Of a stretch of 64,000 bases of DNA, positions 1 to 36,446 are shown piece by piece. Numbering within the stretch: position 1 is the first letter of the stretch; the number at the start of each line of letters is the position of its first letter. The position numbers and the translations under genes were made by a program. The notes below the pieces were generated by a model. It ran no database searches and had not been told where the DNA came from. It worked only from the letters and a program-made list of their open reading frames with translations. Source of the stretch: Escherichia phage EC106; the sequence record ON210138.1; one strand, 5' to 3'.

Positions 1-47
1 GGGGAGTAAGAGGGGGAGAGGGGTTGGTCTGGCTCTCTATAAAAACC

Positions 48-1322: not shown

Positions 1323-1512
1323 AACGGCTTTTAAAATCTTCTAATGGTTCAGAGAAGAAGTCACGGAAATGGTTACTGCACTCACGTTTTATCACCTTCT
1401 TGTAAGTTAACACATCTTCTTCTGCAAACGGGATGACTTCATGCCTCCCTTTGAATACTGCTGACCTTACAATCTTACGTGTCTTTTTATCTCTGGCTAG
1501 TATTACTTTCAT
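1279..1512 (-). CDS. hypothetical protein
   Basis: ORF in operon context only. Confidence 0.3.
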   Translation of the reverse strand: MKVILARDKKTRKIVRSAVFKGRHEVIPFAEEDVLTYKKVIKRECSNHFRDFFSEPLEDFKSRCGKGIIIQEAIIHG

Positions 1513-1813
1513 AGTTTACCTTCTCAGTTAGCTCATACAAGTCAACATGCTCAATACTATCAATGTTGATACCAATCTTTTTGAAGCGTTCTATAACTTC
1601 GTTGTCAGTCATCCATATCAGACACCAATGATTGTGGATGGATTCTTCAAGAAGGTCAACACAATCTTTAAAAGTTTTTGTATCACTTCTTGTTCCAACT
1701 ACTGCGATTGTTCCATATAGCCACTTACCATTGCCATAAGACACTTGTGCTACGCCAACTTCTTTATCTTTCTCGTAGTAAACGGCTACAAAGTCTCTTC
1801 CATTAATCTGCAT
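1487..1813 (-). CDS. hypothetical protein
   Basis: ORF in operon context only. Confidence 0.35.
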   Translation of the reverse strand: MQINGRDFVAVYYEKDKEVGVAQVSYGNGKWLYGTIAVVGTRSDTKTFKDCVDLLEESIHNHWCLIWMTDNEVIERFKKIGINIDSIEHVDLYELTEKVNYESNTSQR

Positions 1814-1815
1814 AG

Positions 1816-2085
1816 TTACTTCCTCGTTTTGAGAACTGCTAAGATTTCTTTAGAGTCTGGTAAGAACCATGTGTAGTGATTCTCTTTGATTTCTGGATGA
1901 GTGTCAACCTTTATTTTGCACTCTTTACCAACATGCTTAAGCTGTGCTGTGACACCTTGCATAAAGATATGACACATCACATTATCCATAATGGTTGGTA
2001 AGAAATCAATTCGCATATAAGTTTCTTTTGGTCGTGGCAACAGTAAGTAACCTTCTACATAGAAAGTATCTTGATTCTCTGTCAT
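1816..2085 (-). CDS. hypothetical protein
   Basis: ORF in operon context only. Confidence 0.35.
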   Translation of the reverse strand: MTENQDTFYVEGYLLLPRPKETYMRIDFLPTIMDNVMCHIFMQGVTAQLKHVGKECKIKVDTHPEIKENHYTWFLPDSKEILAVLKTRK

Positions 2086-2351
2086 TGCTGCTTATTCCCT
2101 AATAAAATCATGTCAATAAGGTTATTAGCTTTGATTGTGCACTGGTAAAAGCCGTCACGATAGAACTCAAGGGCTGCTGCTACATCACTGCCTGTATTGC
2201 CTTTGATGATGTACCGTGATTCTTCTTGAGTGTACTTATCACTCTCACTTACTTGGGAGTTTTTGAATGTACTGCTCACTTTGTTCGTTGAACACCCTGA
2301 CATAGTTATCAGTAACACAAACATTATAAAACTCTGGCTTAGTTTTTTCAT
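2082..2351 (-). CDS. putative o-spanin (Rz1-like outer-membrane lipoprotein)
   Basis: signal peptide plus lipobox-like LITMSGC; gene start embedded out of frame in the 3' end of the upstream TM-protein gene. Confidence 0.5.
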   Translation of the reverse strand: MKKLSQSFIMFVLLITMSGCSTNKVSSTFKNSQVSESDKYTQEESRYIIKGNTGSDVAAALEFYRDGFYQCTIKANNLIDMILLGNKQQ

Positions 2352-2592
2352 ATGTTAGTACCTCTTTTGTATGCTTATTCTTAGCAAGCACATCTTTCAA
2401 ATCATTTTTGTAATTGGTGCTCAGTGTGACTAATCCTTCCTGATAAGCATCTTTAGCAACACTTATGAGCTTTTGATTATTTAGCTCAGTTTCAGCAACT
2501 TGATAGTCTCTGTAAGAGTATCCTCCCCAGACACCTGCCCCAACTAAGAAAACAATTATGAAAGTGGCTTGACAGAACTCTTTAAATGTCAT
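2245..2592 (-). CDS. putative i-spanin (Rz-like)
   Basis: N-terminal transmembrane helix then soluble domain; overlaps downstream lipoprotein ORF in another frame. Confidence 0.5.
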   Translation of the reverse strand: MTFKEFCQATFIIVFLVGAGVWGGYSYRDYQVAETELNNQKLISVAKDAYQEGLVTLSTNYKNDLKDVLAKNKHTKEVLTYEKTKPEFYNVCVTDNYVRVFNEQSEQYIQKLPSK

Positions 2593-2611
2593 TTAACAAT
2601 CTCCTAAAATG

Positions 2612-2632
2612 AAAAAGGCTCCCGAAGGAGCC
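2612..2632 (-). terminator. rho-independent terminator (GGCUCC-UUCG-GGAGCC + U5)
   Basis: perfect 6-bp stem, UUCG tetraloop on minus strand, followed by U-run. Confidence 0.75.
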
Positions 2633-2638
2633 TGTATA

Positions 2639-3451
2639 TTACTCTTGACTGTAATAGTTGACAAGTGAAATTGCTTGATTCATCAACAGCTTATCAGCCT
2701 GTGCTCCGCGACCAGCTTGTAATGCTAGTTGGTATACCTCTGTAACATATTTGTTAGACATACCTTCACAGTAATCGTTATAATCCTCCCAAAAGGAGAA
2801 TGCAGCATCACCATATAGGCGTAATGTGATTAGCATTGCTGCACGGATACCAGAAGAGTACTTGCGTTTTGCGTTTACTACACCTTTAAGCTGTACTTCA
2901 AGAGAATCAATTTGTTCCAACTCATTCTTAAAATCATTAAGGTATTTAACTGTTTCAGTGTTAGATACCTGTTGCACACCATAGTATGCAGCAACATACT
3001 TAATGGCAGTAGCCCAAGATGCTTTCATCAATTCTGATTCTGGATTGAAAGAAATCATCTTCATATTCCCGTAATAAACCTCTGAAGGTTTCTCTCTTGC
3101 TAATTCAGAGTCAAAATGAGTATACAAATCTGTGACATCCAATATAGAGTTCACATGGTATATAACTGCAATCAGGTTATCTGGTCGTGTCAGGTTACCA
3201 ACCTTCCATGCCTCTCGACGTGAGTGTCCATCAATAATAAACAGTGAACTGCCAAACTTAGCTACATGGACTACTGTTTGGTCTGGTGACACATCACCAT
3301 TAAGGTGCTTACTCTTCAGACGTTTCAGTGTATTTCTCTGACGAGGATTTTCTTTGTAGCGTTTCTCGTTAAGGAAATCCTCAACACTGATAATCTTAGT
3401 GTGCATTTTAACAACTTTACCGTTCAGTGCTACATTGATGCTATTTGACAT
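2639..3451 (-). CDS. ParB/Srx-like domain protein (paralog of 6418-7257)
   Basis: IDGHSRREAW motif resembling the DGHxR core of ParB-like nuclease/CTPase folds; clear similarity to 6418-7257. Confidence 0.45.
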   Translation of the reverse strand: MSNSINVALNGKVVKMHTKIISVEDFLNEKRYKENPRQRNTLKRLKSKHLNGDVSPDQTVVHVAKFGSSLFIIDGHSRREAWKVGNLTRPDNLIAVIYHVNSILDVTDLYTHFDSELAREKPSEVYYGNMKMISFNPESELMKASWATAIKYVAAYYGVQQVSNTETVKYLNDFKNELEQIDSLEVQLKGVVNAKRKYSSGIRAAMLITLRLYGDAAFSFWEDYNDYCEGMSNKYVTEVYQLALQAGRGAQADKLLMNQAISLVNYYSQE

Positions 3452-3462
3452 AACTTTATACC

Positions 3463-4347
3463 TTAGTTGTGGATAATTACTTCGTTAATACCTTTGCTTC
3501 TCTGTGCATGTATTGTGTATGAATGATTAACCTCTGTCAAGTGAAAATTTTCAGGAATTAGGTTTATCCATCCGTCCCACTGAGAGTTTGACATTAACAC
3601 CTTAGAGCCTAACTCCCCCCAATCAGACATATCTTTGCACAATTTCACAGACATTGAAACGTCGAACTTTGCGCCATATTTCTGGTTGGTGTTTATATAT
3701 GGTGGGTCACAGTAAATGACCGTCCCTTCTCCATGCTTTATGTCAACCATATCATAAGAGTGACTGCTGAGGACAACCCTCTCATCAGTGATGAAGTTAT
3801 AGAACTCCTTTAGTGCTTCTTCAGTCTTTGTAAAGAAAACTTCTTCTTCCATCAAATAGCCGCAAGGGGTTGCATAGTGCCCTTTCATCTCTTTAGTTGT
3901 CTGCCATACACCACCAAAACTTAGTTTCTGAAGGAAAAACTGTCTGGCATAGTATCTGTAGTCATAGACACCAGATTCACCAAGCGTGAGAAGCTCGTCT
4001 CTTACACTGTAGTACATCTTATAACGTAATCGGTTATGGCGTTGCCCCTTCATAGTGTACTCTTCCTGCATAGGTAATGCTAAGTACCTTTTTGCCAAGT
4101 ACCGAAACCCTTCCATGAATTTGTCATAATCATCCCTGAAGGTTATGTAAAGCTCTATGATATGCTTGTTTATCTCATTAATAAATATTTTTGCTTCTGG
4201 GTACTTATTGTAAGCCCAGATAGCTACTGAGCCACCACCTGAAAACAGGTCATAGAAGTTTTTACAGTTGTCTGGAAAGACACCTAAACGCTCATATTCT
4301 TTCAGTATTCTTGTTTTACCGCCAAGATACTTAAACATTGGTTTCAT
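3463..4347 (-). CDS. dam: Dam-family N6-adenine DNA methyltransferase
   Basis: KYLGGK N-terminus, FSGGGSV (motif I) and CDPPY (motif IV). Confidence 0.85.
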   Translation of the reverse strand: MKPMFKYLGGKTRILKEYERLGVFPDNCKNFYDLFSGGGSVAIWAYNKYPEAKIFINEINKHIIELYITFRDDYDKFMEGFRYLAKRYLALPMQEEYTMKGQRHNRLRYKMYYSVRDELLTLGESGVYDYRYYARQFFLQKLSFGGVWQTTKEMKGHYATPCGYLMEEEVFFTKTEEALKEFYNFITDERVVLSSHSYDMVDIKHGEGTVIYCDPPYINTNQKYGAKFDVSMSVKLCKDMSDWGELGSKVLMSNSQWDGWINLIPENFHLTEVNHSYTIHAQRSKGINEVIIHN

Positions 4348-17289: not shown

Positions 17290-17353
17290 CTAGTTACCTC
17301 ACCAATAAAAAGGTGATGTAAGCCTATCAAGACCCACATCACCTTGTCAAGTT

Positions 17354-18220
17354 TTACATAGAAACCCTATCCTTAATTTCTGCCATCTTAGCGTCATTCA
17401 TTCGAGACTGACCTTTAATTTTTGTGAATGACAAGTACCCGCACACCCTGTTAATCACAGAGATATCGTGTGAATGGCAAACCTCACACTCTTCAACATC
17501 AGCCTTTGGTCTGTTACCACAATGTTCACAGATTGCTAAGTCAAAGTTAAGTCCCTGATAAAAACCTTTCAACATGCCTCTTGTAATGCAACTTTTAAGT
17601 GCTGGTAAGTTTTCTGGGTTAGCTACCCTTACATACTGGATTCTGCCACCTCTACAGATATGGAAGAATGGCTCTTCTAAGTCCTGCTTCTCAAATGGTG
17701 AGATGTCTGCTGCAACATTCATATGGAAACTGTTTGTAAAGTATTCCTTGTCAGAAACACCTTTGATAACACCAAACATTTCTCTGAACTGTTTTAGCTG
17801 AGTTCCACAAAGTGATTCTGCTGGAGTACCATAGACGGCATATAAGAAGCCATCTTCATTTTTAAACTCTTCAGTTTTCATGTTGATGTATGCCAGAACA
17901 TTGTATGCAAAACTACAGCTTCCAACTTCATGAAGTCGTTTACCTTCAGCAAGAACAGATAGCTCATCAAGCGCAGTAACACCAAAAGAAGCTGTGAAGG
18001 ACTTCACAATATCCCAACCAACCTTGTCAGTAGGCTTCTTAGTTCCTTTGTACAGACCACCTTGTGTAAACGCAAGAGGGTTAGAACTTGCTGGCATATT
18101 AGCAATCATTTCGTAACGTTTCTTGTGGAAGCTGCGAATCATCTCTAGGTACTTATCAAGTTCTTTCCAGAAATCTAAACCATTCTCTTTAGAATACTGG
18201 TAAATCATTGGTAAGTTCAA
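17354..18220 (-). CDS. nrdD: anaerobic ribonucleotide reductase, C-terminal exon
   Basis: glycyl-radical motif RVCGYLS and zinc ribbon CEHCG...CEVCH; frame stays open upstream of the annotated start to about 18322. Confidence 0.8.
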   Translation of the reverse strand: MNLPMIYQYSKENGLDFWKELDKYLEMIRSFHKKRYEMIANMPASSNPLAFTQGGLYKGTKKPTDKVGWDIVKSFTASFGVTALDELSVLAEGKRLHEVGSCSFAYNVLAYINMKTEEFKNEDGFLYAVYGTPAESLCGTQLKQFREMFGVIKGVSDKEYFTNSFHMNVAADISPFEKQDLEEPFFHICRGGRIQYVRVANPENLPALKSCITRGMLKGFYQGLNFDLAICEHCGNRPKADVEECEVCHSHDISVINRVCGYLSFTKIKGQSRMNDAKMAEIKDRVSM

Positions 18221-19041
18221 AGATACAGCACCAATGTTTGCACGACCTACATAAAACTCTTCACCATATTCGTTATAGTATGGTGATAAAAATGCTCTAC
18301 ACTTGTTGTTCAGGTAAGTTCGCTAAGCTTACCCCGCTTTATTCAAGCTGCTTACTGTCGCCAGTAAGTCCAGACTATATCTTCTACTTATTTCTAAGTA
18401 GCGTACCATTTCGAGTCGCTTGACCCTACACCGCTACATTCATCACGGTTAGTCGTTCGGCATTTAGATGTACTCAAACTTATATTCGAAGTTATTATGC
18501 TCTTTTACACCCTTCAATATTGAAGAGATGGTCTTGCGATTGTGTCCAAGTGTATTGGATAACTCTCGTATTGACTTAGCAACAATAACTTCCTTTGTCA
18601 CTTTGTGTGTGGCTTTCACGGCATATGAACGCTTGTGGAACTTGTAGCACCCGTTCTCAATAACCCTCTTTAGCATTCTCAGAATGAGTACCCCATTCTA
18701 AGTTAGATACGTGGTTATTTAGTTTGTTATCGTCCTTATGTTTTACAATTGGAAGATTGTTCGGGTTAGGTACATATTTCTCAGCAACTAACCTGTGGAC
18801 ATACATGTCACGATTCTTCTTACCGTAAAACCTCACTTTCATATACCCAGTGTTGGATTTCCACTGCGTAAGCTCTACACCATTTTCCCTAAAAACTTTT
18901 CCATCTTCAGTGACGTGATAGTTTGGCATGTAAGACTCCTATGTTGTATAGTTTCTTACATCGTACATCATTTAGCACAGGATTGTCTACATCTGTAGAG
19001 TTTCCCTGTTTAGGCACGTTTTAGATGAGCTATAGAGCTTG
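18221..19041 (-). mobile_element. putative group I intron interrupting nrdD, carrying an HNH homing-endonuclease gene (boundaries approximate)
   Basis: nrdD split into two co-linear ORFs; intervening HNH ORF plus structured non-coding flanks. Confidence 0.6.
18464..18929 (-). CDS. HNH homing endonuclease, apparently frameshifted (two overlapping ORFs)
   Basis: HKDDNKLNNHVSNLEWGTHSENAK HNH motif in 18657-18929; C-terminal segment in 18464-18676. Confidence 0.6.
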
Positions 19042-20241
19042 TTAACCCATCGGTGAAATTACCTTGCCAGAACGCTCAAAAGCTTCTGCTACAGCACCAT
19101 GACCAGATACACTTAAGAAATCTGGATACATTGCTTTAGAGCAACACTCTATAGCTTTACTGTACAGGTGGCCTTGACAGATATTCTCATTATGTCTCTT
19201 CTGGTCATAAATATAAACCAGTTTAGGGAATACAACAGGTTTCTTGCTCTTACCTTGTCCATTCATACGAACATCTAGGAGAGTACTTGCAATCATGTAT
19301 TGTAGTCGGTTATCTTCATTGGACATATCTGAGTCAAGTAACCCGAATGTCAAAGTTGTGAATGCAAAATCACCACGGCTGCAAGGTACAGTATTTAGTT
19401 TCATCTCTAGTGACTGGAAGCCTTGAGTTAATTCAATCTGTAGCTGCTCCATGACATAATTGTGGTAATGTTCTTTAGGAATACCATAAGATGCTGCTTT
19501 CTCAGCATGATAGCGTAGAGACTTCTTAGCATACGGTACAAGTACCTTATCAATCTCTGCTAAAGTAAAGCCACCAAATTGCTGTGCAGTTGCTGAAAGA
19601 ACTACGTCACCAATAACCTGTAAGGCTGACAGTACAGACTTTGGTTCACAATATTCAATGCCAGACATTTCAAAGCCACCTTTCAGCACTTTACCAATGT
19701 CAAACAGGCAACAGTTGATACCACCAAAAATTAGGTCTCTTAAATCATGGATATAGATAAACCCTTTTTCAATGGCTTCAAGTTCCTCTGGTGTTAAGTG
19801 GTACTGTTTAAAGATTTCTTTAGTCAGATAACCACGAATAATTGAGCCTTTTGTAGAAATTAAACTGCTGTCAAAATTAGCGTTTTCTCGGTCGCCTAAG
19901 AATAGTGTATCTTTGGTCTTCTGGTAGAGTTCATCCCAATTTTGAGCAACTTCTTTACGGTAATTTCTATATGTTGAGTAAGACTCATAAATCTCGTGAT
20001 TGACTTCTGCCAAAGCACCCTCAACAATACTGTGAATATCATTTACCGAAATTAGCAAATTATTCTGCTTAGTGGACTTTACCAGAATCCTCATAAATGC
20101 TGACTCAAGAGCTTGAGTAACATCTGGTGGAAGCTCTTTATAACCAACTCTGTTAGCTGACTTTGTGACTGCTGCTAAAACTTTTTTGATATCAGGTTCT
20201 TCAAGTGAGCCATTCTTTTTAATAATCTGTACTTTGTTCAT
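19042..20241 (-). CDS. nrdD: anaerobic ribonucleotide reductase, N-terminal exon
   Basis: 399-aa ORF co-linear with the C-terminal exon; ORF probably reads into intron before its stop. Confidence 0.75.
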   Translation of the reverse strand: MNKVQIIKKNGSLEEPDIKKVLAAVTKSANRVGYKELPPDVTQALESAFMRILVKSTKQNNLLISVNDIHSIVEGALAEVNHEIYESYSTYRNYRKEVAQNWDELYQKTKDTLFLGDRENANFDSSLISTKGSIIRGYLTKEIFKQYHLTPEELEAIEKGFIYIHDLRDLIFGGINCCLFDIGKVLKGGFEMSGIEYCEPKSVLSALQVIGDVVLSATAQQFGGFTLAEIDKVLVPYAKKSLRYHAEKAASYGIPKEHYHNYVMEQLQIELTQGFQSLEMKLNTVPCSRGDFAFTTLTFGLLDSDMSNEDNRLQYMIASTLLDVRMNGQGKSKKPVVFPKLVYIYDQKRHNENICQGHLYSKAIECCSKAMYPDFLSVSGHGAVAEAFERSGKVISPMG

Positions 20242-20260
20242 TATTGCCCCTTTACATGCT

Positions 20261-20281
20261 AAAAAGGTCTCCGAAGAGACC
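20261..20281 (-). terminator. rho-independent terminator (GGUCUC-UUCG-GAGACC + U5)
   Basis: hairpin plus U-run on minus strand. Confidence 0.7.
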
Positions 20282-20289
20282 CTTTCATT

Positions 20290-20496
20290 TTAAATCTTTT
20301 TAGAAAACTTCGCAAAGAGTTCTCTTAGTTTTTCAGTGATACCTAACTGTATCTCTAATATTTCGAAGATAACCCATAGTAACATGGCTACAAACAATGA
20401 ACCTTGTTCAAAGTCAGTAAATAGGTTAACAATAAGCATACCAATCACAATATCTGGTGCAGCAACAACCAAACCTTCCCAAAGGCGTTTAAGCAT
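20290..20496 (-). CDS. small hydrophobic membrane protein
   Basis: 68 aa with two predicted hydrophobic helices. Confidence 0.4.
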   Translation of the reverse strand: MLKRLWEGLVVAAPDIVIGMLIVNLFTDFEQGSLFVAMLLWVIFEILEIQLGITEKLRELFAKFSKKI

Positions 20497-20731
20497 TATT
20501 CACCTCTGCCATAAAATTCTGTAGCGTCCCAACAGGTTTTAGGTTTTGTCCATCAGTTTTCATGATGAATGGCATCTGACGAACTGGCATCTGTGCAATA
20601 TCCATTAGTTCTGATAGCTCATAATCCTGCCCTAACATCCTCACAACATGGTCAATACCACGAGCTTTTGCAAAATTCTTTGCAGTCTCACACTGAGGGC
20701 ATCCAGTTTTGGAGTAAATTACATAAGTCAT
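20489..20731 (-). CDS. glutaredoxin/NrdH-like redoxin
   Basis: CPQC active-site motif, 80 aa, immediately upstream of nrdB. Confidence 0.7.
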   Translation of the reverse strand: MTYVIYSKTGCPQCETAKNFAKARGIDHVVRMLGQDYELSELMDIAQMPVRQMPFIMKTDGQNLKPVGTLQNFMAEVNNA

Positions 20732-21864
20732 TAAGGAACCTCTAAAAATCCACTATTCAAATCATCTACAACAGTATTCAATAAATACGCACCGTTCTGT
20801 TGCTCCTGATTAGCATTCTGCTCTTTATCAATTTCCATCTTCTTAATCATGTACTTCAAAGGTGGTTCTTTAGGAGCTACAAAATCTCTGGGAATGCCAA
20901 ACATATCATACAGTGGGGCAGCATTATAGTAAACCCACTCATGAAGCAGCTTTGTATTTAAGCCAACTACAGCACGTCCTTCGGAGAAGATATAATACGA
21001 CCATTTCTCTTCACTTTCAACTACTTCATCTAAGATTACTTTAATCTCTGGAAGAATTTGTTGAAAAGCTTTCTGCCACTCATCATCTCTTAAAGTTTCT
21101 TTTAAAACTTCAATATCAATTTTAGTGTGAAGGGTTTCATCAAGCATAATTTTCTGGACAGCTTGAGCAATACCCTGAAATTTATCTTGAGCATCAAGTG
21201 CAAAAGTACATGCAAAGGATGCCATAAAAGATATACCTTCAAGTGCAGTCACTGCAAACAACCCTTTTAGAATCACTTTATGGAAGTGTAAAGGGTCTTT
21301 GTCCAGAAGTGAGTCCCGCACATAACTCAGACGATAGTTTATACCTTCATCCAGTAATTCTTCAAGAACACGATTCACAGTTTTTAATCGGTCTTGCACA
21401 GCAACATTCTGGTTAATCTCATCTAAGATTGTTTCAGGGTTTTTAATACATTGCCTTACAATCTCTGAGTAAGTCAAAGCATGAAGGTTCTCAATCTCAG
21501 ACTGCTTCATAATTGCAGTTGCATAGATGTCATCAGAGATAAAGGGTGCAAAGGCAAATGCCAAACTCTTAGCAACTTGAGTATCTGCTTCCCATTGCCA
21601 CTTGAGAATCTCAAGCATTACACCTGACATAGATGCTGGAACACTCTCAAAATCAAGACGTGATTGTTCAAAAGGGAACTCATCTTCTGACCAATCTTGT
21701 GCTTTTTGTTGCTTATATAGTTCAAAGATTTTTGGGTAGTGTTTATTAAGTGAGTCAAAAGTTTTTCTCTCACCACCTAAAAAGATTGGGTGCTGGTTAA
21801 TCATAATGTGATTTCTCCTTTCTTTATCATTTCTAAGGCTTGTTTTCTGTCTAAAACTTCCCAA
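20731..21864 (-). CDS. nrdB: ribonucleotide reductase small subunit
   Basis: 377-aa protein adjacent to nrdA; called from size, position and overall resemblance. Confidence 0.8.
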   Translation of the reverse strand: MGSFRQKTSLRNDKERRNHIMINQHPIFLGGERKTFDSLNKHYPKIFELYKQQKAQDWSEDEFPFEQSRLDFESVPASMSGVMLEILKWQWEADTQVAKSLAFAFAPFISDDIYATAIMKQSEIENLHALTYSEIVRQCIKNPETILDEINQNVAVQDRLKTVNRVLEELLDEGINYRLSYVRDSLLDKDPLHFHKVILKGLFAVTALEGISFMASFACTFALDAQDKFQGIAQAVQKIMLDETLHTKIDIEVLKETLRDDEWQKAFQQILPEIKVILDEVVESEEKWSYYIFSEGRAVVGLNTKLLHEWVYYNAAPLYDMFGIPRDFVAPKEPPLKYMIKKMEIDKEQNANQEQQNGAYLLNTVVDDLNSGFLEVP

Positions 21865-22142
21865 TTTTCTTTGTTAAACATCTCATAAGGTCTTGCGTAG
21901 ATTTTACAATCTGCTGTAGAGATGTAAGAGATACCAGCAACCCATGAGTCATCATTTTGTTTTATCATCATGTCTGTGCTACTCACATAGTACATCGTTT
22001 TCCGAGGCTTGTGGAGCAAGTATATAGGTCGCTTATGCTTTTCTATTAAATCTTTCATGGTCTCTCCAAAGTTATTTTTAGAGGGTCTTTTACGACCCTC
22101 ATAGTTGTTAAAACTAAACACCACAACCCTCGCAATAAGCAT
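21801..22142 (-). CDS. hypothetical protein (start uncertain)
   Basis: ORF between nrdA and nrdB overlapping both ends. Confidence 0.3.
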   Translation of the reverse strand: MLIARVVVFSFNNYEGRKRPSKNNFGETMKDLIEKHKRPIYLLHKPRKTMYYVSSTDMMIKQNDDSWVAGISYISTADCKIYARPYEMFNKENWEVLDRKQALEMIKKGEITL

Positions 22143-24348
22143 CTTGCAGTGCGGATTTACCTACACCAATGCGGCTGTTAAGGTAGTACATGGTTTTCAT
22201 ACCTACCGAGTTGGCATAAATCATGTACTTCAAAGCTTGAGCCAATGATACCTTCTTAGACTTTGCATAGTCAACATAGAAGTCTGAAGAGATAGCTTGA
22301 CCAGTGAACTTTTGAACAATTGCATAACAGTCAATCATATCAAAGGTGTCGATATCCCAAGCAATTTCATAGACATACTTCAACTCTTCATAATCTGGAA
22401 CAATAAACAGCACGTTACCAGTTGCAGACTTTTTAGTTAAAATAAAGTCACGAATTGGGTACAAGCCATTTGTCGTATTAGTTGCTAGTGAAGAACTCTC
22501 ATTAGGCATGTAAGCTTCTAATACAGAGTTTCGGATGCCACCGTTTTCTTTGATACGTTGTGCTAAGTCATCCCAATCATATCTTAGTTTTGCATCATGC
22601 TTCTCATCAATCTTCTTGTTAGCTGTCTTTGGAGGAACCCAGCCTTCAGGATACTTAGTGAACTTCATGTACTCTGGAACGCCACGCTCTTTAGCAAGTC
22701 TCAGAGAGGCTTCATGCAGATAGTAAGAGTGCATCTCTGCAAGTTCATGAAGTTTCGTTTTACCTGCTCGTGAAGAGTAGTTCACGTAGTTCTTCGCAAG
22801 GTAATGAGCAACATTTGTAAGGCCAATCCCAACAGAACGACGCTTCTGAACATGGTTACGCATCGACGGATACGGATAATCCATAAGGTCAATAACGGAG
22901 TCAACCATTGCAAGAGCATAATAAGCAACGTCAGCGTATTCATCTTCTGAAATTCTCCCTGCAACCAAACTAGCTAGGAAGCAAAGAGCCACCTCACCAT
23001 CCTCTTTCACAGCATCATCTCTGTAAAGGTCTGTCTCTTTCTCAAAACCATACACTGGCAATACAATTTCCATACAAAGATTTGACATCTTCAATGGTTC
23101 TTTAAATGGTGTATGTGTGTTTGCATTGTTAGTGAAGAATGGATACACACGACCTGTAGCATAACGCTGTTGAATAAACAGCTTAGCAATTTCACGAGCC
23201 TTGACTCGTCTGTGCTTAACTCCTGAATGTACTGCGTGACCAACCGCCATAGCAAACTCATCAGCAGATGCTGTGTAGAACATGTCATAGAGTTTTGGTG
23301 CATCTTTGTAAGAGAATAGCAACCAATCTGTATCATACTGAACACACTGCCAGAAATAATCGTTTGTGCCGAATGAGTAGTCCATCTCGTTAATACGTTT
23401 AGAAGGAACCGTTGTAGGGTGCTTCAAACGCAGTAAATCTTCAATCTGCGGGTCTAGAGCAGTATAGAAGTTATTAGCTGAACCACCACGACTCTTCTGT
23501 TTGTTTGCCTCTACAGATGAACGTACAAGCTTGTAATAAGGTAGCTTACCCATGTGCTCAATAGTATTTTGACGGATACCATCACCAATAGTGCGAGTCT
23601 CCATCAGCATACCAATACCAGCCTGCTTTGTAGTCATATCATAAGCAACCTTTGCAGCAATACCGAGTGATTCAGCAGTATCATTTGCCTTAATCAAACA
23701 GCATGACGCATAGCCTGATTTAGTTGCTCTTAAACCGTTTAAATAAGGCGTAGGAGCGTTAATCTTCAGGTCAGATAGGTAAGTGTACAGCTTGATAACA
23801 TCTTGCAGTCTACGGTGCTTTGGTTGCTTCTCAAAGGCTTTCATAGCCATACCCATAAACATAAATTGTGGTGACTCAAAAAGTCTTCCAGTTTTAATAT
23901 CACGGATACCATACTTGTCTCTGAACTGTTTCAATACTGCATAACCGTAAGAGATATCTTTTGAGTGTACGATGTAACCTTGCAGATATTCAAGCTCTTC
24001 CTGTGAATAATCCATCTTCTCCCAAAGTCCTGCTCTCTCCATATTTTTAACGAAGGTAATCAGCGTAGGAACCTTAGTAAAGCCTCCAAAGGCTTCTTTG
24101 TAGATAATACCCAAAAGCAGTCGTCCAGCCATATCTGAGTACTCTTGAGTTTGTTTATCAACACAAACATCAATCATGGCTTGGTGCATCTCTTTTGTAG
24201 TGCAACCCTCATAGACACGTTTCATAGCTTCCATAGTGACTTCTGACCAGATAATTCCACGTTTATCTGCCCATGATGCCCACTTATTCAGTCTTTCTGG
24301 GTCAAAGCTTACTACTGTACCGTTTGATTTTTTAATTGTCTTAATCAT
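22114..24348 (-). CDS. nrdA: ribonucleotide reductase large subunit
   Basis: 744 aa; NLCMEIVLP active-site region. Confidence 0.9.
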   Translation of the reverse strand: MIKTIKKSNGTVVSFDPERLNKWASWADKRGIIWSEVTMEAMKRVYEGCTTKEMHQAMIDVCVDKQTQEYSDMAGRLLLGIIYKEAFGGFTKVPTLITFVKNMERAGLWEKMDYSQEELEYLQGYIVHSKDISYGYAVLKQFRDKYGIRDIKTGRLFESPQFMFMGMAMKAFEKQPKHRRLQDVIKLYTYLSDLKINAPTPYLNGLRATKSGYASCCLIKANDTAESLGIAAKVAYDMTTKQAGIGMLMETRTIGDGIRQNTIEHMGKLPYYKLVRSSVEANKQKSRGGSANNFYTALDPQIEDLLRLKHPTTVPSKRINEMDYSFGTNDYFWQCVQYDTDWLLFSYKDAPKLYDMFYTASADEFAMAVGHAVHSGVKHRRVKAREIAKLFIQQRYATGRVYPFFTNNANTHTPFKEPLKMSNLCMEIVLPVYGFEKETDLYRDDAVKEDGEVALCFLASLVAGRISEDEYADVAYYALAMVDSVIDLMDYPYPSMRNHVQKRRSVGIGLTNVAHYLAKNYVNYSSRAGKTKLHELAEMHSYYLHEASLRLAKERGVPEYMKFTKYPEGWVPPKTANKKIDEKHDAKLRYDWDDLAQRIKENGGIRNSVLEAYMPNESSSLATNTTNGLYPIRDFILTKKSATGNVLFIVPDYEELKYVYEIAWDIDTFDMIDCYAIVQKFTGQAISSDFYVDYAKSKKVSLAQALKYMIYANSVGMKTMYYLNSRIGVGKSALQDAYCEGCGV

Positions 24349-24366
24349 TTTTGAGTCCTACAGATG

Positions 24367-24388
24367 AAAAGAGCCTCCGAAGAGGCTC
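24367..24388 (-). terminator. rho-independent terminator (GAGCCUC-UUCG-GAGGCUC + U4)
   Basis: 7-bp stem, UUCG loop, U-run on minus strand. Confidence 0.7.
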
Positions 24389-24394
24389 CCTAGT

Positions 24395-24733
24395 TTAAAT
24401 CTTGAAAATTTGCTCATTCTGCCACATATCGTAAAACTTATCACTCACTTTTGTGACTGAAGAAGTGTGCATACAATTCAGGGAGAACCATGATGGTGTA
24501 TTATCATACATAAGTGTTTCAAGTTTTTGTGTAACGTTCACATCCATGTCTGCAACAACGTAATTACCTCGCATCTTGCAAACAATTCTTCCAAACAAGA
24601 TTGCACTTCTGCCTCTTCGGTCATCACAGTACATAACTGTGTCTCCGTGCTTAACATCTTGTCCGATACTATCAACACCTAATTTAGCACCTGAGATAAT
24701 GTCATCATAAGATAGCTCTTTTGCTTTAGACAC
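24395..24733 (-). CDS. hypothetical protein
   Basis: ORF in operon context only. Confidence 0.35.
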   Translation of the reverse strand: MSKAKELSYDDIISGAKLGVDSIGQDVKHGDTVMYCDDRRGRSAILFGRIVCKMRGNYVVADMDVNVTQKLETLMYDNTPSWFSLNCMHTSSVTKVSDKFYDMWQNEQIFKI

Positions 24734-25058
24734 GGTATTTCTCCAAGTTTCTTTTTAGATACAACCAACCATCGTCAGTCCTTTCTACACCCATAAAGAG
24801 TGGAGCCATCACAACTTTCCCAAAAGTATTTCTGTGTTGGCAGATTTCAAAGGAATACTCTTTCTCAATGTCAATCCCGTATTTGTACAGAACTGCTTTT
24901 AAAACTTGTTCATTGTCCAGAAGTGTATCTGGAGTCTCACCATATTTTTCTAGTAACGGGTCATTCATGAACACCGTCATAGAAATATTGTAGTTTGAGA
25001 AGTGGCTCTTCTGAGCCACACCCTCTTTATTAATGTTCTGTGAATCCATTATAACCAA
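24726..25058 (-). CDS. hypothetical protein
   Basis: ORF in operon context only. Confidence 0.35.
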   Translation of the reverse strand: MVIMDSQNINKEGVAQKSHFSNYNISMTVFMNDPLLEKYGETPDTLLDNEQVLKAVLYKYGIDIEKEYSFEICQHRNTFGKVVMAPLFMGVERTDDGWLYLKRNLEKYRV

Positions 25059-25785
25059 CCCCTTTTAACCAGCACTTCAGGTTATTGACATCATAATTCA
25101 GTTTCGGGTATGAGGTTACATGGAACTGCTCACCATCATAATAGACAATATCTGCAATCCATAGTCCATTCTCTTTACAGAAGTCTTTATCTGCTTTAGA
25201 AGTAATTGGATTAACTTCTACAAAACCATCTACACCCAAATCCTTTAAGCTACCTACAATACCTTTGCAGATAACGCATGTCTCAGATACTACCACAAAA
25301 AGTTCTTGGCTTTCAAGTTCTACAATGTATTCACCAAGCTGTACTTTAGGGAGATTCGATTGCTTCATAATCTTCCCATCTGCTGCACGAACAATCGCAT
25401 ACCACTCTTTACCATCAACTACTGACATTCTGATAATACACTCTTGACCAGTACGCTTTTCAATGTCTGCAAGACGTTTTAAAGCTTCTTCATAGTCATC
25501 TGTGTACTTCAGGTCATTATTATGGCAAACAGCTTTCATAGCACCATTGTGGTCATGTTGTGACAGGTAAATCAAACCGTCAAGAACATATTGCAAATCT
25601 GCCTGAGCATCTAGTGTCTCAATGGGGTCTTTCTCTTCAATTGCTTTTACAAGCTCTTTTGCTTCTTCAAGCATACACAGAGATTGAGATTTTAAAGATT
25701 CCCAATACTCATTACTGTAAGGTTGCTTTTGAGTGTTTCCACAACGAAGGTTCCAGTTTTTTACTGATTCTCTTGAGTTAAACAT
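25030..25785 (-). CDS. hypothetical protein with possible N-terminal MazG-like NTP pyrophosphohydrolase domain
   Basis: LEEAKELVKAIEEKDPIETLDAQADLQYVLDGL resembles MazG EExxE...E..D helix pair. Confidence 0.4.
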   Translation of the reverse strand: MFNSRESVKNWNLRCGNTQKQPYSNEYWESLKSQSLCMLEEAKELVKAIEEKDPIETLDAQADLQYVLDGLIYLSQHDHNGAMKAVCHNNDLKYTDDYEEALKRLADIEKRTGQECIIRMSVVDGKEWYAIVRAADGKIMKQSNLPKVQLGEYIVELESQELFVVVSETCVICKGIVGSLKDLGVDGFVEVNPITSKADKDFCKENGLWIADIVYYDGEQFHVTSYPKLNYDVNNLKCWLKGVGYNGFTEH

Positions 25786-26009
25786 TCGGACTCCTTAAAA
25801 TATCTGTTAACTTTTAGCTCTCGTGTTTCAATATATTCTAGATGCTCACGTAGCTCTTGGCGTTTAAGCATTAGGTGCTGCATTTGTGATTCAACAGCTT
25901 CAACTTCTTTAATTATTGATTCTCTAGCATTTGCAAGAATGCGCTCAAGTTCTTCAATCTTACTGTCAACTTTTGCTACATGACTCACAGCTTTGCTTTT
26001 GTTAAACAT
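25761..26009 (-). CDS. hypothetical coiled-coil protein
   Basis: 82 aa, heptad-like charged sequence. Confidence 0.3.
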   Translation of the reverse strand: MFNKSKAVSHVAKVDSKIEELERILANARESIIKEVEAVESQMQHLMLKRQELREHLEYIETRELKVNRYFKESECLTQENQ

Positions 26010-26030
26010 TTTATTCTCTCTCAGTAGTTA

Positions 26031-26528
26031 TCAAGCACAATTTGCTTTCATGACCTTATGGATTCTTTTTTCAGCATCTTCATAAGTTTCTTTAGTAATA
26101 AACTTAATTGCTGCAATATTGGCATTGTAGAAGAGTCTGAGCTTCGAGTCAATCCTTTTTGTCATTACATCGAACTTGTGTTGAAGGTTTGCTTCACCAT
26201 AAACTAGACCACCTTTTGTGTAGTAGGTCTGAATAATGTAAAAGTCAAAAAATTCTTTTCCAAAGCTCTCAATATCTTTTTTAATATACTCAGAAGAAGT
26301 CTCATAAGTCATCCAATCACTTTCCTTAGTGACTACCTTCTTCCGAGTCTTACCAGCAACTTTTCGTTTGGTCACACTATTAAGTTGTTTTTTACCCAAA
26401 TAGTACTGTCCAGTCTTTTTGCAGTACACTAGGTAGACAAAACCAAAGTGCTTTGCTGGGTCAACTTCCCCACATAAAGATACCCAATGGCCATAGGTGG
26501 GACAATTGCCAAATCCTTTAATCTTCAT
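26031..26528 (-). CDS. putative GIY-YIG-like nuclease
   Basis: GFVYLVY...YYLGKK spacing resembles the GIY-(x10)-YIG motif; weak. Confidence 0.3.
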   Translation of the reverse strand: MKIKGFGNCPTYGHWVSLCGEVDPAKHFGFVYLVYCKKTGQYYLGKKQLNSVTKRKVAGKTRKKVVTKESDWMTYETSSEYIKKDIESFGKEFFDFYIIQTYYTKGGLVYGEANLQHKFDVMTKRIDSKLRLFYNANIAAIKFITKETYEDAEKRIHKVMKANCA

Positions 26529-27558
26529 TCATACAAGGCTCCCAATTATATTTCTTAAAAGTGAAATCGTCTTTCTTATTTCTTTCCTGATAAGCTAAGA
26601 AAAAGTGTTGCTGCATTAACTCTAAAGGTGTTCTGGTAATTGTTTGTCCATCCCACGAGACATAAGTGTATGACTCTTTCTTAGCGTAAAGCTCATAAAT
26701 TGCATCAAGACACTCTTTGTAAGTGGTTTTACCTTCAAGGGCTTTCATTATAGTAGCCTTACCAACACCCTTTAAACCAAAATAATTATCCGCATTATCA
26801 CCAGCCACAGCTTGGTAACAAAGGAATTTAAAACCTACCCCAACTGTCTTCTTAGCTTTTGGTGTCGATTTTATTGGGCAATCCCAAATTTCACCAACGT
26901 TGTTATCAGCAATGAAAATCAAAGGTGACTTTTCATAGGTCATATCAATACAGTAAGTCCCTTCAGCTTGGCGAAGGTCTTTATCAATACTCATTAAGGC
27001 AGCCTTTTTTCCCATCTTTTCAGCTTTAGCAATAACGATAGAGTCAGCTTCAAATCCATCAAGAATCAATTTGAACTCTGGTCTTGACAGAAGATACTCA
27101 CGACAAGCAACTAAGTGTGTTGGTGTGACAGCATCTTTACGGTTACCTTGATATTGGTGCTCAAGACCTTTAATGTCTTTATGTTTATGCACACCTTTCT
27201 CTGTTAAATAACCTACCCAAGTTCTCTCTTTACCAACAACCTTAAGCCATTCCTGAAGCACCTGTTGAGTAGCCATGATAGCTTCTTTTTCACTCTTAGC
27301 TTCTTTCCAAGTCTGTCTTTCCCATTCATCTTCATCAAATGTCAGGCCAAGTTCTTCCACAAGGATTCTCTGGTCTGCTAACCATCTTGCAGCATCTTTT
27401 GCATTATCAAATGGTTCAGATTCTTCTGCTGTGAGTTTATTGACGTATTTATATTTTGCTTTCTCAACTACACAAGCACCTTTATAGGCAATGCTGTCAG
27501 AGTCAATAAAAACATGTGTAACTGAATCGGGAAGTTTTGTTAATGTGTACTTCTCCAT
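26518..27558 (-). CDS. 5'-3' exonuclease (T7 gp6-like, FEN family)
   Basis: YQGNRK, LDGFEADSIV, SIDKD and AGDNADNYFGLKGVG blocks parallel T7 gene 6 exonuclease. Confidence 0.75.
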   Translation of the reverse strand: MEKYTLTKLPDSVTHVFIDSDSIAYKGACVVEKAKYKYVNKLTAEESEPFDNAKDAARWLADQRILVEELGLTFDEDEWERQTWKEAKSEKEAIMATQQVLQEWLKVVGKERTWVGYLTEKGVHKHKDIKGLEHQYQGNRKDAVTPTHLVACREYLLSRPEFKLILDGFEADSIVIAKAEKMGKKAALMSIDKDLRQAEGTYCIDMTYEKSPLIFIADNNVGEIWDCPIKSTPKAKKTVGVGFKFLCYQAVAGDNADNYFGLKGVGKATIMKALEGKTTYKECLDAIYELYAKKESYTYVSWDGQTITRTPLELMQQHFFLAYQERNKKDDFTFKKYNWEPCMNED

Positions 27559-33178: not shown

Positions 33179-33435
33179 GTAAGCCTCTTTTAAGTAACTA
33201 TTAAGTTTTAATCTTTTATCTTAACGTATTCTATACGTTATACTTTAAAGCTTTTTAAAAGCTATTAAATAATCTTTTAAGAGTTTTAAAGTATCTGTAT
33301 AGTTAAACTGTTAAGTAACCTTTTAAGTAAAAACCCACTTCGCAAAGATTAACACCTTGTCAAGTACATTGTCAACTTGCTTTTTATAATTTTTTGCAGT
33401 AATGTATGAGGTTAATGATTTTAGAGGGAGTAAAA
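33179..33435. promoter_or_regulatory. AT-rich divergent control region with repeated CTTTTAAG motifs, palindromes and TATAAT element
   Basis: CTTTTAAG at 33187, 33274, 33321; palindrome AACGTATTCTATACGTT 33223-33239; TTGTCA x2 and TATAAT at 33385-33390; SD AGGGAG at 33424-33429. Confidence 0.5.
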
Positions 33436-35619
33436 ATGGAAAACGTAGATTTTAAAAACTTACATTTGGTTGGTGATACAGAAACTGATGGTTTACTCCT
33501 TGAGTTCACTAAAGTGCACGTAATGGCCTTTGCAGACTATAAATCTGACGATGAAGAGCCACCTGTATGGGTCTTTACAGATGAGCCTATCCTCGGTCAC
33601 AAGTACACCAAGTACATTAAGGGTGGTTTACGTGAAGGTGTTGAGTTTGCGTTAAAGGCAAAACGACTTTGCATCCATAACGGTCTTGGTTATGACTGGT
33701 GGGTTTTTAATCACATTGCACCTGATTTATGGAACTTTGATAATCCAAAGTGTAAGCCGTGGAGTAATTTCTTTCAGGATTCTCTTATCCAGTCTCGTGT
33801 TCAGTGGATGGATAGACCAACTCCAAAGGGTTATAAAGGTGCTCATGGCTTGGCTGCATGGGGTGCTCGTGTTGGTGTTCGTAAGCCAGAGATTGAGCAT
33901 TGGGGTGTGTGGAATGCAGAAATCTTCACTCGTGTTGTAGAAGATATTCGTATTAACGCCAAAACTAAACGGGCACTTGATAACGAGTATCTCAAGCTTA
34001 AGAAGTGTGGTATAGACACTTATGAAACCTACATGCGAGCTAAAGAAACATCTTTCTGGATGAGTCAACAGGCTATCAATGGTTGGAAAGCTGATAAAGA
34101 ACTTATGGAGTTCCATGTAAAGGAACTTGACAAGTTGACTAATGAGCTTGCTTCAGAGGTTGAACCACATCTACCTCCAACTATTAAGACCAAAGGTAAA
34201 GTCACTGGAGAAGAGTTTGCGAAAGCTTGGAATGAGTATGTTGAAACATTTGGTCATGCAGATGGACTGAAGAGAATTACCAAGTACCCTAAGACAAAGT
34301 ATCGTCAGCAGGTACGTAATGGTGAGATGCAGACATACGAAATCAAACCATTTGGTAAGCCAACTACAAAGATTTTTAACATTGGAAAGAGAAATTGCTA
34401 TACACCAACTAACTCCGTAACTGGTGAAGAGTACAAGGAAGGCTTTGTAGCAATGAAGGATGCTCGTGCAATTTGCAATGAGTTGAACGCAAAGATTGGT
34501 AAGAAATGCAAAGACTGGAAGCCAGTAAAAACAGTCAAAACTGTGAAGTACTATAACAGCCACGTTGTTAACCACTTTGAACTTGAGTCAAGTCGCTACA
34601 CAGGTTTGATTGATGCACCATATACACCAATTGAGTTTGAAGTTTCTCGTATGACTCAGGTAGCAGTTGTTAAAGATTACTTGAAATCAGTTGGTTGGAT
34701 TCCAGATGACTGGAATTACAAGAAAGACTCAGATGGTCGCCCTGTCAAAGTTTGTCGTTTCAAAGACAATAAAAAGATGATTACAAAGCATCCTAAGTGG
34801 CAGGAAATGGTTGAGCGGTGTGGTTTGAGCTATGTTGAGCATGAAGGTGTACAGTACATTGAGCATAACTGGTCTGTGAAGAAGTACACAGATTTGCTTG
34901 AGCCTTGTTTAATCCGTACTTCACCAAAACTTACTGAATCATCTTACGATACGATTGAAGGTGAACTTGGACAGAAGATTGCGAAGTACTATACTTTGAT
35001 GCACCGACGCAGAACTATTGAGAACTCAAAGGACGACGAAAAAGGCTGGTTGAACCAGATTCGTCCAGATGGTCGCCTTAGTGCTGGTGCAATGGTGTTT
35101 GGTACTTCAACTGGACGTATGACGCAATATGGTATTGTAAACGTACCGTCTGGTGCTGCTGTCTATGGAGCACCTATGAGGGAGGTGTGGATTTGTGAGG
35201 AAGGGACTAACGTTGTCTCTGTTGATATGAACTCAGCCCAGCTAGTTCTTCTTTGTAACTTTATGGGTGATAAAGAGTCCACTAAAGCGGTAACACAAGG
35301 TAAAGAAGAGGTTGAGTTCATTCGTCAAGAAGATGGACGCTATTACTGCAAACACTTTGATGAGTACCTCAACCCAGAGATTGATAAGTACCTTCGCTAT
35401 GACTCTGAGAATGACCTGTACGTTGTCTATTCAGGGACTGATGCACATACACTGAACAGTATCTACTTTAGCTTGAACGATGAGCAGGATATCTTGACTT
35501 GTCGAGCTACTCAGGATGAGAATCTTCTTCATGAGATTAGCAAAGGTCGTAAGAAAGCTAAGAATGGTATCTATGCGTCAGTGGCGCATGTAAAACGTTG
35601 TGAATTGCTGGAAGCCTAA
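33436..35619 (+). CDS. family A DNA polymerase, N-terminal part (exon 1); ORF-track start 33406, likely start 33436 after SD
   Basis: 3'-5' exonuclease motif HLVGDTETDG, motif A VDMNSAQLVLL, motif B RKKAKNGIY near the end. Confidence 0.85.
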   Translation: MENVDFKNLHLVGDTETDGLLLEFTKVHVMAFADYKSDDEEPPVWVFTDEPILGHKYTKYIKGGLREGVEFALKAKRLCIHNGLGYDWWVFNHIAPDLWNFDNPKCKPWSNFFQDSLIQSRVQWMDRPTPKGYKGAHGLAAWGARVGVRKPEIEHWGVWNAEIFTRVVEDIRINAKTKRALDNEYLKLKKCGIDTYETYMRAKETSFWMSQQAINGWKADKELMEFHVKELDKLTNELASEVEPHLPPTIKTKGKVTGEEFAKAWNEYVETFGHADGLKRITKYPKTKYRQQVRNGEMQTYEIKPFGKPTTKIFNIGKRNCYTPTNSVTGEEYKEGFVAMKDARAICNELNAKIGKKCKDWKPVKTVKTVKYYNSHVVNHFELESSRYTGLIDAPYTPIEFEVSRMTQVAVVKDYLKSVGWIPDDWNYKKDSDGRPVKVCRFKDNKKMITKHPKWQEMVERCGLSYVEHEGVQYIEHNWSVKKYTDLLEPCLIRTSPKLTESSYDTIEGELGQKIAKYYTLMHRRRTIENSKDDEKGWLNQIRPDGRLSAGAMVFGTSTGRMTQYGIVNVPSGAAVYGAPMREVWICEEGTNVVSVDMNSAQLVLLCNFMGDKESTKAVTQGKEEVEFIRQEDGRYYCKHFDEYLNPEIDKYLRYDSENDLYVVYSGTDAHTLNSIYFSLNDEQDILTCRATQDENLLHEISKGRKKAKNGIYASVAHVKRCELLEA

Positions 35620-35891
35620 GTCTGTAAAGATATGGTAATCAGCAGCGAAGTCTCTGTTAGGACTCCTAAAGCAAATAACATAACTATAGAGATTCCTAAC
35701 AGAGAAACGTTCAGAGACTATCGAAAAGCATACTTAATGTATGAACTGAGTAGAGTAGGGTGGTAAGCTAATGACCATTCCCAAGTGCAACGGTAGTATT
35801 ACTACTACGTGATATAGTCCGACACTCCGTAGAAATGCGGAGAAGTTCATAAGAGAACTGGTACACCTTGCGAGTGTATTGACCAGATGTA
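35575..35891 (+). other. putative ORF-less group I intron (or split-gene junction) in DNA polymerase gene; boundaries approximate
   Basis: polymerase motif B ends exon 1 and GAGDEK continuation starts 35892; about 270-310 nt of structured non-coding sequence between. Confidence 0.5.
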
Positions 35892-36446
35892 TTGTTCGGT
35901 GCAGGTGATGAGAAGTTTGCTAAGACGATTAAAGCTGCAACTACTCAGGAAGGTGCGCTGACTAAACAGACTTACTTTATACGTTTGCCTAAAATTAAGA
36001 AGCTGTTAGATGACTTGGAAGCTGACTACAAAGCAACTAAAAAGGCACTTGAAGAGGTGTTTGGTAAGACTGCTGCAATCTCTAAAGGGGGTTTTGTAAA
36101 GGTTGCTGGAGCTTGGTTGTGGTGTAAATCTCCACATAAGTTATTGAATTATTTGCTCATGGGTTCGGAAAGTCAGATTCAGAACGAGGCAATTAACCTT
36201 GCTTGCCGTCGTATGATTGACGAAGGTTTGATGAAGTTGAACGGTCGTAAACCAGCCATAGGTGCTCGTTTATTGTGCTCCTATCACGACGAGACAAGTT
36301 GGGAATGTCCAGAAAGTATGACGGCAGAGGTGAAGGCTGTCACTGATTGGTATTACGGACAAGCCTCTAAGAACTTAGGGCTAAAGAGTGAAACACTGGT
36401 AACTGGTACTGGTAAGGTTGGTAAAAGCTGGTATGAGGTACATTGA
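35892..36446 (+). CDS. family A DNA polymerase, C-terminal part (exon 2)
   Basis: LFGAGDEKFAKTI continues motif B; motif C SYHDE; C-terminal ...YEVH. Confidence 0.85.
   Translation: MFGAGDEKFAKTIKAATTQEGALTKQTYFIRLPKIKKLLDDLEADYKATKKALEEVFGKTAAISKGGFVKVAGAWLWCKSPHKLLNYLLMGSESQIQNEAINLACRRMIDEGLMKLNGRKPAIGARLLCSYHDETSWECPESMTAEVKAVTDWYYGQASKNLGLKSETLVTGTGKVGKSWYEVH

Follow-up and report, generated by a model that had tools for sequence, protein, structure and literature searches.

The DNA analysed here, referred to throughout as the window, is a stretch of 64,000 nucleotides from Escherichia phage EC106 (sequence record ON210138.1), and all of the features described below are located on its minus strand. 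A megablast search with positions 17300-20300 recovered 321 phage records, almost all of which belong to myoviruses of the Felix O1 type (Ounavirinae, Felixounavirus); the top hit shows 97% identity with the query covered from end to end. This part of the genome carries a minus-strand cluster for nucleotide metabolism, comprising nrdB, a glutaredoxin gene, a gene for a small membrane protein, nrdD and nrdG, within which nrdD is interrupted. An earlier note on this DNA had placed two portions of nrdD at 19042-20241 and 17354-18220, with two HNH endonuclease frames between them at 18657-18929 and 18464-18676, and all four ORFs are indeed found at these positions with support from Pfam. The ORF at 19042-20241 matches an ATP-cone domain and positions 1-250 of the NRDD profile, and that at 17354-18220 matches NRDD positions 284-560 together with the Gly_radical domain.

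The two ORFs leave a gap of approximately 33 positions in the NRDD profile, the codons for which lie upstream of the TTG at 18220, where the reading frame remains open and reads CRAFLSPYYNEYGEEFYVGRANIGAVSLNLP ahead of the listed start. The end of exon 1 is set by collinearity with the intron-less nrdD genes of phages Felix O1, JLBYU32 and VpaE1, and has the sequence ...TCA CCG ATG GGT (SPMG); exon 1 therefore occupies 19045-20241 (399 codons, by ORF and Pfam evidence encoding the ATP-cone along with the N-terminal half of NRDD). Exon 2 occupies 17354-18301 (315 codons and a stop), begins TGT AGA GCA (CRA...) and contains the glycyl-radical motif RVCGYLS. Many Felixounavirus genomes that lack the intron (Felix O1, JLBYU32, finno and VpaE1 among them) match, without a break, a 500-nt query spanning the predicted junction, and because this query is collinear with uninterrupted nrdD, the intron can be assigned to 18302-19044, a length of 743 nt. 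It starts with UAA, an in-frame stop, and has its terminal G at 18302; the TAA at 19042-19044, with which the apparent N-terminal ORF ends, is this same intron-initial triplet. The limits proposed earlier for the insertion (18221-19041, ~820 nt) thus have to be moved by 81 nt on the exon 2 side and by 3 nt on the exon 1 side.

Joining the two exons gives ...SPMG|CRAF... within a 2145-nt ORF of 714 codons, which is the same length as the uninterrupted nrdD CDS of Felix O1, and the predicted ligated junction would read ...ATGGGT|TGTAGAGC..., that is, ...CCGATGGGT|TGTAGAGCA.... The insertion point separates the Gly codon from the Cys codon in the conserved finger-loop motif MG|CR, equivalent to G289|C290 of T4 NrdD, so that the first codon of exon 2 is that of the catalytic finger-loop cysteine. 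In T4 NrdD, the finger-loop tip carries the motif 288-MGCR-291, the cysteine of which becomes the thiyl radical (PMC4493059).

The ends of the intron can be paired with both exons in the manner characteristic of group I introns. The last seven nucleotides of exon 1, GAUGGGU (19045-19051), pair with GCUCAUC at intron positions 15-21 to form a P1 helix of 7 bp, two of the seven being G.U pairs, in which the final U (19045) lies opposite a G and so provides the U.G wobble at the 5' splice site. The internal guide sequence (19024-19038) consists of the P10 strand GCUCUAUA (19031-19038) followed directly by the P1 strand GCUCAUC (19024-19030), and the former, at intron positions 7-14, forms 8 bp with the eight nucleotides that open exon 2, UGUAGAGC (18294-18301). 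All the features expected of group I splice sites, namely P1 with its U.G pair, P10 and a G as the last intron base, are therefore present. The T4 td intron, which was included in the same data set, also begins UAA directly after ...GGGU.

Between these ends lies a group I core, which is assembled from two halves separated by the endonuclease gene. The 5' half (18964-19018) is identified by a partial Rfam match to model positions 60-139, by the helix table and by covariation, and contains the P3 5' strand (19013-19018), P4 (19004-19009 with 18977-18982), the P5 hairpin (18986-18999) and the P6/P6a 5' strands (18964-18976). The 3' half (18351-18472), which is identified by a match to Rfam RF00028 at 18351-18531 and again by the helix table and covariation, contains the P6a and P6 3' strands (18460-18472), the P7 5' strand (18450-18454), P7.1 (18431-18448; CCGU...GCGG), P7.2 (18413-18426; GGGUC-AAGC-GACUC), the P3 3' strand (18402-18407), P8 (18384-18401), the P7 3' strand (18373-18377) and P9 (18351-18368). 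Both P7.1 and P7.2 align with their equivalents in the T4 td and nrdD introns. Beyond P9 there is a peripheral 3' hairpin of the P9.1/P9.2 type, GGUAAG-CUUAGCGAA-CUUACC (18313-18333), a structure that had been noticed earlier as GGTAAG...CTTACC and is real, although the position given for it (18312-18332) was one base off. Its homologue in T4 nrdD, GUAGAG-AAGUAGCGAA-CUCUAC, keeps the loop UAGCGAA with a compensatorily changed stem, and the hairpin of phage RPN213 differs by one change of G-C to G-U.

A covariance-model search, which had been proposed as a check for the P1-P9 core, recovers it in pieces. When Rfam RF00028 was run in E-value mode on the minus strand of 18100-19200, the segment 18351-18531 scored 34.5 bits (E 7e-7), with P7-P9 as its high-confidence part, and the segment 18894-19009 scored 16.2 bits and covered P4-P6. 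Each score is below the curated gathering score of RF00028, which is 50 bits, and a search of the whole window at the gathering threshold gave no match in nrdD. That search returned a single match, to a different intron at 35567-35842. The nrdD copy falls short of the gathering score and appears as two separate pieces because ~490 nt of HNH ORF are inserted in its P6a loop. Sister alleles from which the ORF is missing exceed the cut-off when scored against the same model, those of REP7 (316 nt) and RPN213 (292 nt) reaching 53.6 and 60.4 bits, respectively, and the window intron, once its ORF is deleted in silico, is 98-99% identical to such ORF-less sister alleles. The intron of phage allfine, in which the ORF is intact, does not differ from that of the window outside the ORF.

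Independent evidence for the fold comes from covariation among six introns, namely those of the window, RPN213, Vibrio phage F100 nrdD, T4 nrdD, T4 td and an Aeromonas terL gene. The count was made over the 35 pairs of P3, P4, P5, P6, P7, P7.1 and P9, with P6a, P7.2 and P8 being left out as they are of variable length and out of register in the alignment. Across these pairs, 98.6% of cells are paired and changes on both sides are seen in 13 of the 35; P3 alone occurs as five different sequences in the six introns, every one of them paired, and P7.1 shows a compensatory change of G-C to C-G. None of 500 shuffles matched the observed values, and sliding the partners by 1-3 columns reduced pairing to 30-42%. 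The window intron has P7.1 and P7.2 between P7 and the P3 3' strand and has no P2, an arrangement characteristic of subgroup IA2 introns (the T4 td / nrdB / nrdD type). The suggestion made earlier of an intron-like insertion can thus be sharpened to a group I intron, on the basis of its P1-P10 architecture, the covariation and the ORF-less alleles that score above the Rfam cut-off.

The endonuclease gene is housed in the loop of P6a, and its last two codons and stop (UAC AUC UAA) double as the P6a 3' strand and run into P6. Intact relatives (phages allfine and Si3 and ~60 other records) have an intron of 742 nt with a single 465-nt ORF of 154 aa, in which the nuclease is continuous with a C-terminal DNA-binding module. 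In the window this continuity is absent, the gene being divided into a 90-aa frame (18657-18929), which contains the N-terminal domain and the HNH motif and ends at a TGA produced by an extra T, and a 70-aa frame (18464-18676), which corresponds to a helical linker followed by the helix-turn-helix module for DNA binding at the C-terminus. The first of these matches Pfam HNH_3 over residues 43-86 with 42.8 bits (cut-off 24.8; E 4e-11), and the second gives weak matches to HTH and I-HmuI NUMOD-like profiles. Immediately upstream, a hairpin with arms AUGUAAGA...UCUUACAU (18928-18961) presents an AGGAG Shine-Dalgarno sequence (18936-18940) in its loop, and the AU of the start codon for HNH falls within its 3' arm; the fold of 18915-18975 has a free energy of -11.4 kcal/mol (z = -2.4). 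Hairpins that sequester the ribosome-binding site, and translational control, have been described for the T4 intron endonucleases (PMC2988022), which the hairpin in the window appears to resemble.

The disruption of the HNH frame, which had been recognized at the outset, can be traced to one extra T at 18659-18660 relative to the ~60 intact relatives, the alignment with allfine and Si3 showing GGTTATTGAG in the window and GGTTATGAG in the relatives. The additional base brings a TGA into frame right after the HNH motif and shifts the helical and helix-turn-helix part of the protein into another frame. As everything said about the state of this gene depends on one nucleotide, the first alternative to be weighed is that the intron is as described above and the extra T is an error of sequencing or assembly, in which case the phage would possess an intact 154-aa HNH protein and a fully mobile intron. 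The extra T is private to this sequence, being present in no record of the phage collection, where all 31 megablast matches to an 81-nt stretch around it have a one-base gap, and in no contig of IMG/VR, where three contigs contain the intact version; moreover, the in silico removal of one T is sufficient by itself to restore the full 154-aa ORF, which has no other defect. Against this, the sequence context changes from TTAT to TTATT and offers no long homopolymer, and the same HNH gene has been independently inactivated in sister phages. The surrounding sequence has also been compared with Si3 over a 9.2-kb block (17352-26535; 97.2% identity), in which there are only two gaps, the extra T and one at the block end. 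The extra T is the sole single-base indel inside a gene in this block, and the assembly is therefore not generally error-prone. On balance, we regard the frameshift as probably a genuine mutation, and an error as the less likely reading, albeit one that deserves to be taken seriously. The idea of a decaying homing gene, put forward in the earlier note, is plausible, with the reservation that it hangs on one nucleotide, which may have been misread in sequencing.

A quite different way to account for the two frames would be a programmed +1 ribosomal frameshift at UAU-UGA-G, by which a low level of full-length endonuclease would be made. Skipping one base at ...GGU UAU U GAG... does yield the GYEN reading of the intact relatives, and the in-frame UGA follows a Shine-Dalgarno-like GAGGG, an arrangement that superficially resembles the prfB frameshift site. 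However, the GAGGG belongs to the conserved codons K-E-G that are found in all of the intact relatives, and tRNA-Tyr cannot re-pair on slipping from UAU to AUU. As no other genome in the phage collection or in IMG/VR has the arrangement, there is no sign of selection for it, and we consider such a mechanism highly improbable.

The state of the element in other members of the genus is informative for both the endonuclease and the intron. In phage FG1m, an independent additional G in a run of G residues cuts the HNH ORF to 83 aa. In alleles of the REP7 type, 426 nt have been lost in frame, leaving a remainder that reads ATG CCA AAT AAC TTC ... TAA, and in RPN213 a different deletion within the ORF lies between two short (A/G)TGTAA(G/A)A repeats, the endpoints of both deletions having been read by eye from full-length and ORF-less introns. 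The inserts of REP7 and related phages and that of RPN213 occupy the same nrdD site as the intron in the window. In a rough census, in which RefSeq/GenBank duplicates inflate the counts, the spliced junction is matched by 237 records, 93 have the intron core and ~60 have the HNH protein at an amino-acid identity of at least 90%, and the distribution of the intron among the junction records is patchy. The 60 nt of exon 1 that adjoin the intron are almost invariant across alleles. In the first 55 nt of exon 2, mostly synonymous differences separate intron-containing from intron-less alleles, with allfine being a mosaic of the two, a pattern that is as would be expected from co-conversion during homing. 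Read as a series, the empty, intact, frameshifted and ORF-deleted copies found within this one genus illustrate the stages through which a homing element decays.

These alleles also bear on the reading of nrdD that prevails in the databases and the literature, in which the gene is genuinely split by a free-standing homing endonuclease gene and two polypeptides would assemble without splicing, as in nrdA of Aeromonas phage Aeh1 (the mobE type). GenBank entries for the relatives contain two nrdD CDSs, and these entries and two genome papers treat the gene as interrupted by an endonuclease, with no mention of an intron (PMC4837284). According to Bardina 2016, a homing endonuclease gene splits nrdD in Felix O1-like phages, an observation credited there to Moreno Switt 2013 (PMC4837284); the latter goes no further than reporting that homing endonucleases are inserted into conserved genes or between them (PMC3728262), and an intron in the phage genome goes unmentioned in both. 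A split gene would leave several observations unaccounted for, however: the ORF is surrounded by a group I core that is complete and covaries, P1 and P10 fit the exon ends exactly, and in the alleles that have lost the ORF, nrdD is still interrupted by 292-316 nt of non-coding RNA. Furthermore, inspection of the 5' end of exon 2 found no start codon and no Shine-Dalgarno sequence, and the annotated C-terminal CDS is devoid of the catalytic cysteine because it starts ~30 codons too late. We therefore attach very little credence to two separately made polypeptides. An intein, finally, is ruled out by the in-frame TAA right after exon 1 and by the HNH ORF having its own Shine-Dalgarno sequence and AUG.

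We are thus left, with considerable confidence, with a subgroup IA (T4-type) group I intron that interrupts Felixounavirus nrdD at MG|CR and whose P6a contains an I-HmuI-like HNH gene broken by a +1 T. Introns of this kind have been found elsewhere in phages, where genes for ribonucleotide reductases (RNRs) are recurrently interrupted by group I introns (PMC3653736), and the core of the window intron is 74% identical to that of T4 td, 75% to those of T4 nrdD and the Aeromonas terminase gene terL, and 77% to that of Vibrio phage F100. The introns of the window, T4, Aeromonas and Vibrio are all members of one widespread phage intron family.

The parallel with the T4 nrdD (sunY) intron that had been drawn in the earlier note is valid in a generic sense, as the two share a host gene and an intron family. 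Both are devoid of P2 and have P7.1 and P7.2, both start UAAC and place a GCUCAU guide against an exon end of AUGRGU, and both carry the homologous 3' hairpin with the loop UAGCGAA, with compensatory changes between the two cores in P3, P4, P5, P7.1, P8 and P9. The parallel fails in the particulars. The T4 intron is inserted at ...UAUGAGU|UAACGUAAG..., around codon 180 (AYE|YEVNTL) and ~110 codons upstream of the MG|CR site of the window, its splice sites being placed here from a published length of 1033 nt together with the U at -1 and the G that ends the intron. Its endonuclease is I-TevII, a member of the GIY-YIG family, in contrast to the HNH protein of the window, and is encoded at positions 236-1012 of 1033, near the 3' end of the intron, rather than in the P6a loop. 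Insertion site, endonuclease family and ORF position together exclude the window intron as an ortholog of the T4 nrdD intron, and its core is as similar to those of T4 td, Vibrio F100 and Aeromonas terL as to that of T4 nrdD.

A closer match is provided by Vibrio phage F100 (OZ195714), whose second nrdD intron occupies the same site (...SYMG|CRSLLSPW...), uses the same GCUCAU guide and has a homologous core. Its HNH gene also sits in the P6a loop, and the protein shows 40% identity from end to end with the intact relative of the window's protein (E 4e-36). It differs in belonging to an unrelated phage of 138 kb, in having an intact HNH ORF of 168 aa, and in that the F100 nrdD has another HNH-bearing insertion further upstream. 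Outside the genus, the F100 intron is the nearest true counterpart. For the endonuclease itself, residues 3-152 of the intact relative can be aligned with residues 12-169 of I-HmuI (PDB 1U3E; E 3.7e-9), from the group I intron in the DNA polymerase gene of Bacillus phage SPO1, and the two have the same order of domains: an N-terminal domain, the HNH motif, helices and a C-terminal helix-turn-helix. I-HmuI is an HNH nicking enzyme with a different host gene and target, and its counterpart in the window is split into two pieces beyond the HNH motif. An intron left with a damaged endonuclease gene also has a precedent in T4 nrdB, the intron of which splices though its HNH endonuclease, I-TevIII, is truncated by a large deletion, the intact version being found in phage RB3 (PMC2988022). 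The two cases have in common a group I intron in a phage RNR gene, an inactivated HNH gene and an intact copy in a relative, and differ in the lesion, a large deletion as against a single-base insertion, and in the gene and site occupied.

The T4 nrdD and window introns apply the same GCUCAU guide to two different nrdD sequences, AUGAGU and AUGGGU, which raises the question of how the lineage came to the catalytic-cysteine codon. It is conceivable, although we think it rather unlikely, that the intron moved there by reverse splicing between sites rather than by homing, with the HNH gene being acquired separately.

Building on the directly observed anatomy, homology, covariation, allele series and single-base difference, we infer the following course of events for the subgroup IA intron. 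Transcription of nrdD would run through the intron, and the UAA at its start would halt ribosomes on unspliced RNA. GAUGGGU at the end of exon 1 would pair with the guide GCUCAUC to form P1 as the P3-P9 core folds, following which free guanosine would cut after U19045, and exon 2, held by the 8-bp P10, would be ligated to exon 1 after the terminal G at 18302, restoring the 714-aa NrdD frame. In the sister phages, the intact 154-aa HNH protein, judged purely by its family membership for both activity and target site, would cut or nick an intron-less nrdD during co-infection, and repair would then copy the intron into it. In the window, the extra T would truncate the enzyme after the HNH motif and remove its DNA-binding half, so that the intron should still splice but would no longer promote its own spread.

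In a search of the literature we found no description of the Felix O1-like nrdD element as a group I intron and no experiment on its splicing. The element is a previously unannotated member of an ordinary and well-understood mobile kind and does not challenge current understanding. Its recognition nonetheless has practical consequences: the annotation of ~90 public Felixounavirus records divides nrdD into two genes and lists an HNH gene besides, and with the intron recognized the two nrdD genes would be replaced by one NrdD of 714 aa. It also adds one more mobile intron to those located in an RNR gene at the codon that is most conserved and essential for catalysis. Within one genus, the site can be seen empty, with an intact element, with two independent frameshifts and with two independent ORF deletions, which makes the series useful material for teaching and for population genetics; should the intron indeed have travelled by reverse splicing, the same alleles would offer a natural system in which to measure how fast each step in the homing cycle proceeds.

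A second group I intron, which carries no ORF, lies at 35567-35842 on the plus strand and is the sole match to Rfam at gathering threshold within the window (RF00028, 62.9 bits). It splits a family-A DNA polymerase gene within the motif-B region, where the residues around it read ...RKKAKNGIY / ..LFGAGDEKF..., and is flanked by ORFs at 33406-35619 and 35892-36446. The two polymerase CDSs are separated by ~270 nt here as against ~760 nt in the related phage Si3, and the polymerase insert is therefore variable among relatives. Sharing 4 nt with the 3' end of the second polymerase exon is a 171-aa plus-strand ORF (36443-36958) with an HNH-type motif (HIDHKDGDGLNNAWDNL), which looks like a free-standing homing endonuclease adjoining the ORF-less polymerase intron.

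A run of 13 A at 43113, where Si3 has 5, is a variable homopolymer tract, and three 1-base insertions relative to Si3 fall within 140 nt of one another, at 59829, 59855 and 59966.

A free-standing homing endonuclease gene of 558 nt, at a position equivalent to that of mobC in T4, separates nrdD from nrdG in Si3, Mushroom and several other relatives. Comparison of the window's nrdD-nrdG spacer (~17290-17353) with positions 3254-3811 of the comparison sequence L002 showed that this gene is absent from the window.

Three GenBank records labelled as Campylobacter phages, A132 (MG065664), A126 (MG065668) and A142 (MG065662), also match sequences from the window. A132 and A126 are 97% identical to its nrdD junction and contain the 316-nt ORF-less nrdD intron; the match to A142 is weak (73%) and confined to part of the window's nrdD intron core. 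We consider all three records to be probably mislabelled or mixed assemblies.

The annotation of the unrelated Vibrio phage F100 (OZ195714; comparison sequence L008, positions 1-3700) divides nrdD into four CDS pieces with two insertions, each bearing an HNH. The first, which follows ...LQFG, looks like another group I intron, while the second is a homologue of the window's nrdD intron, the two sharing the MG|C insertion site.
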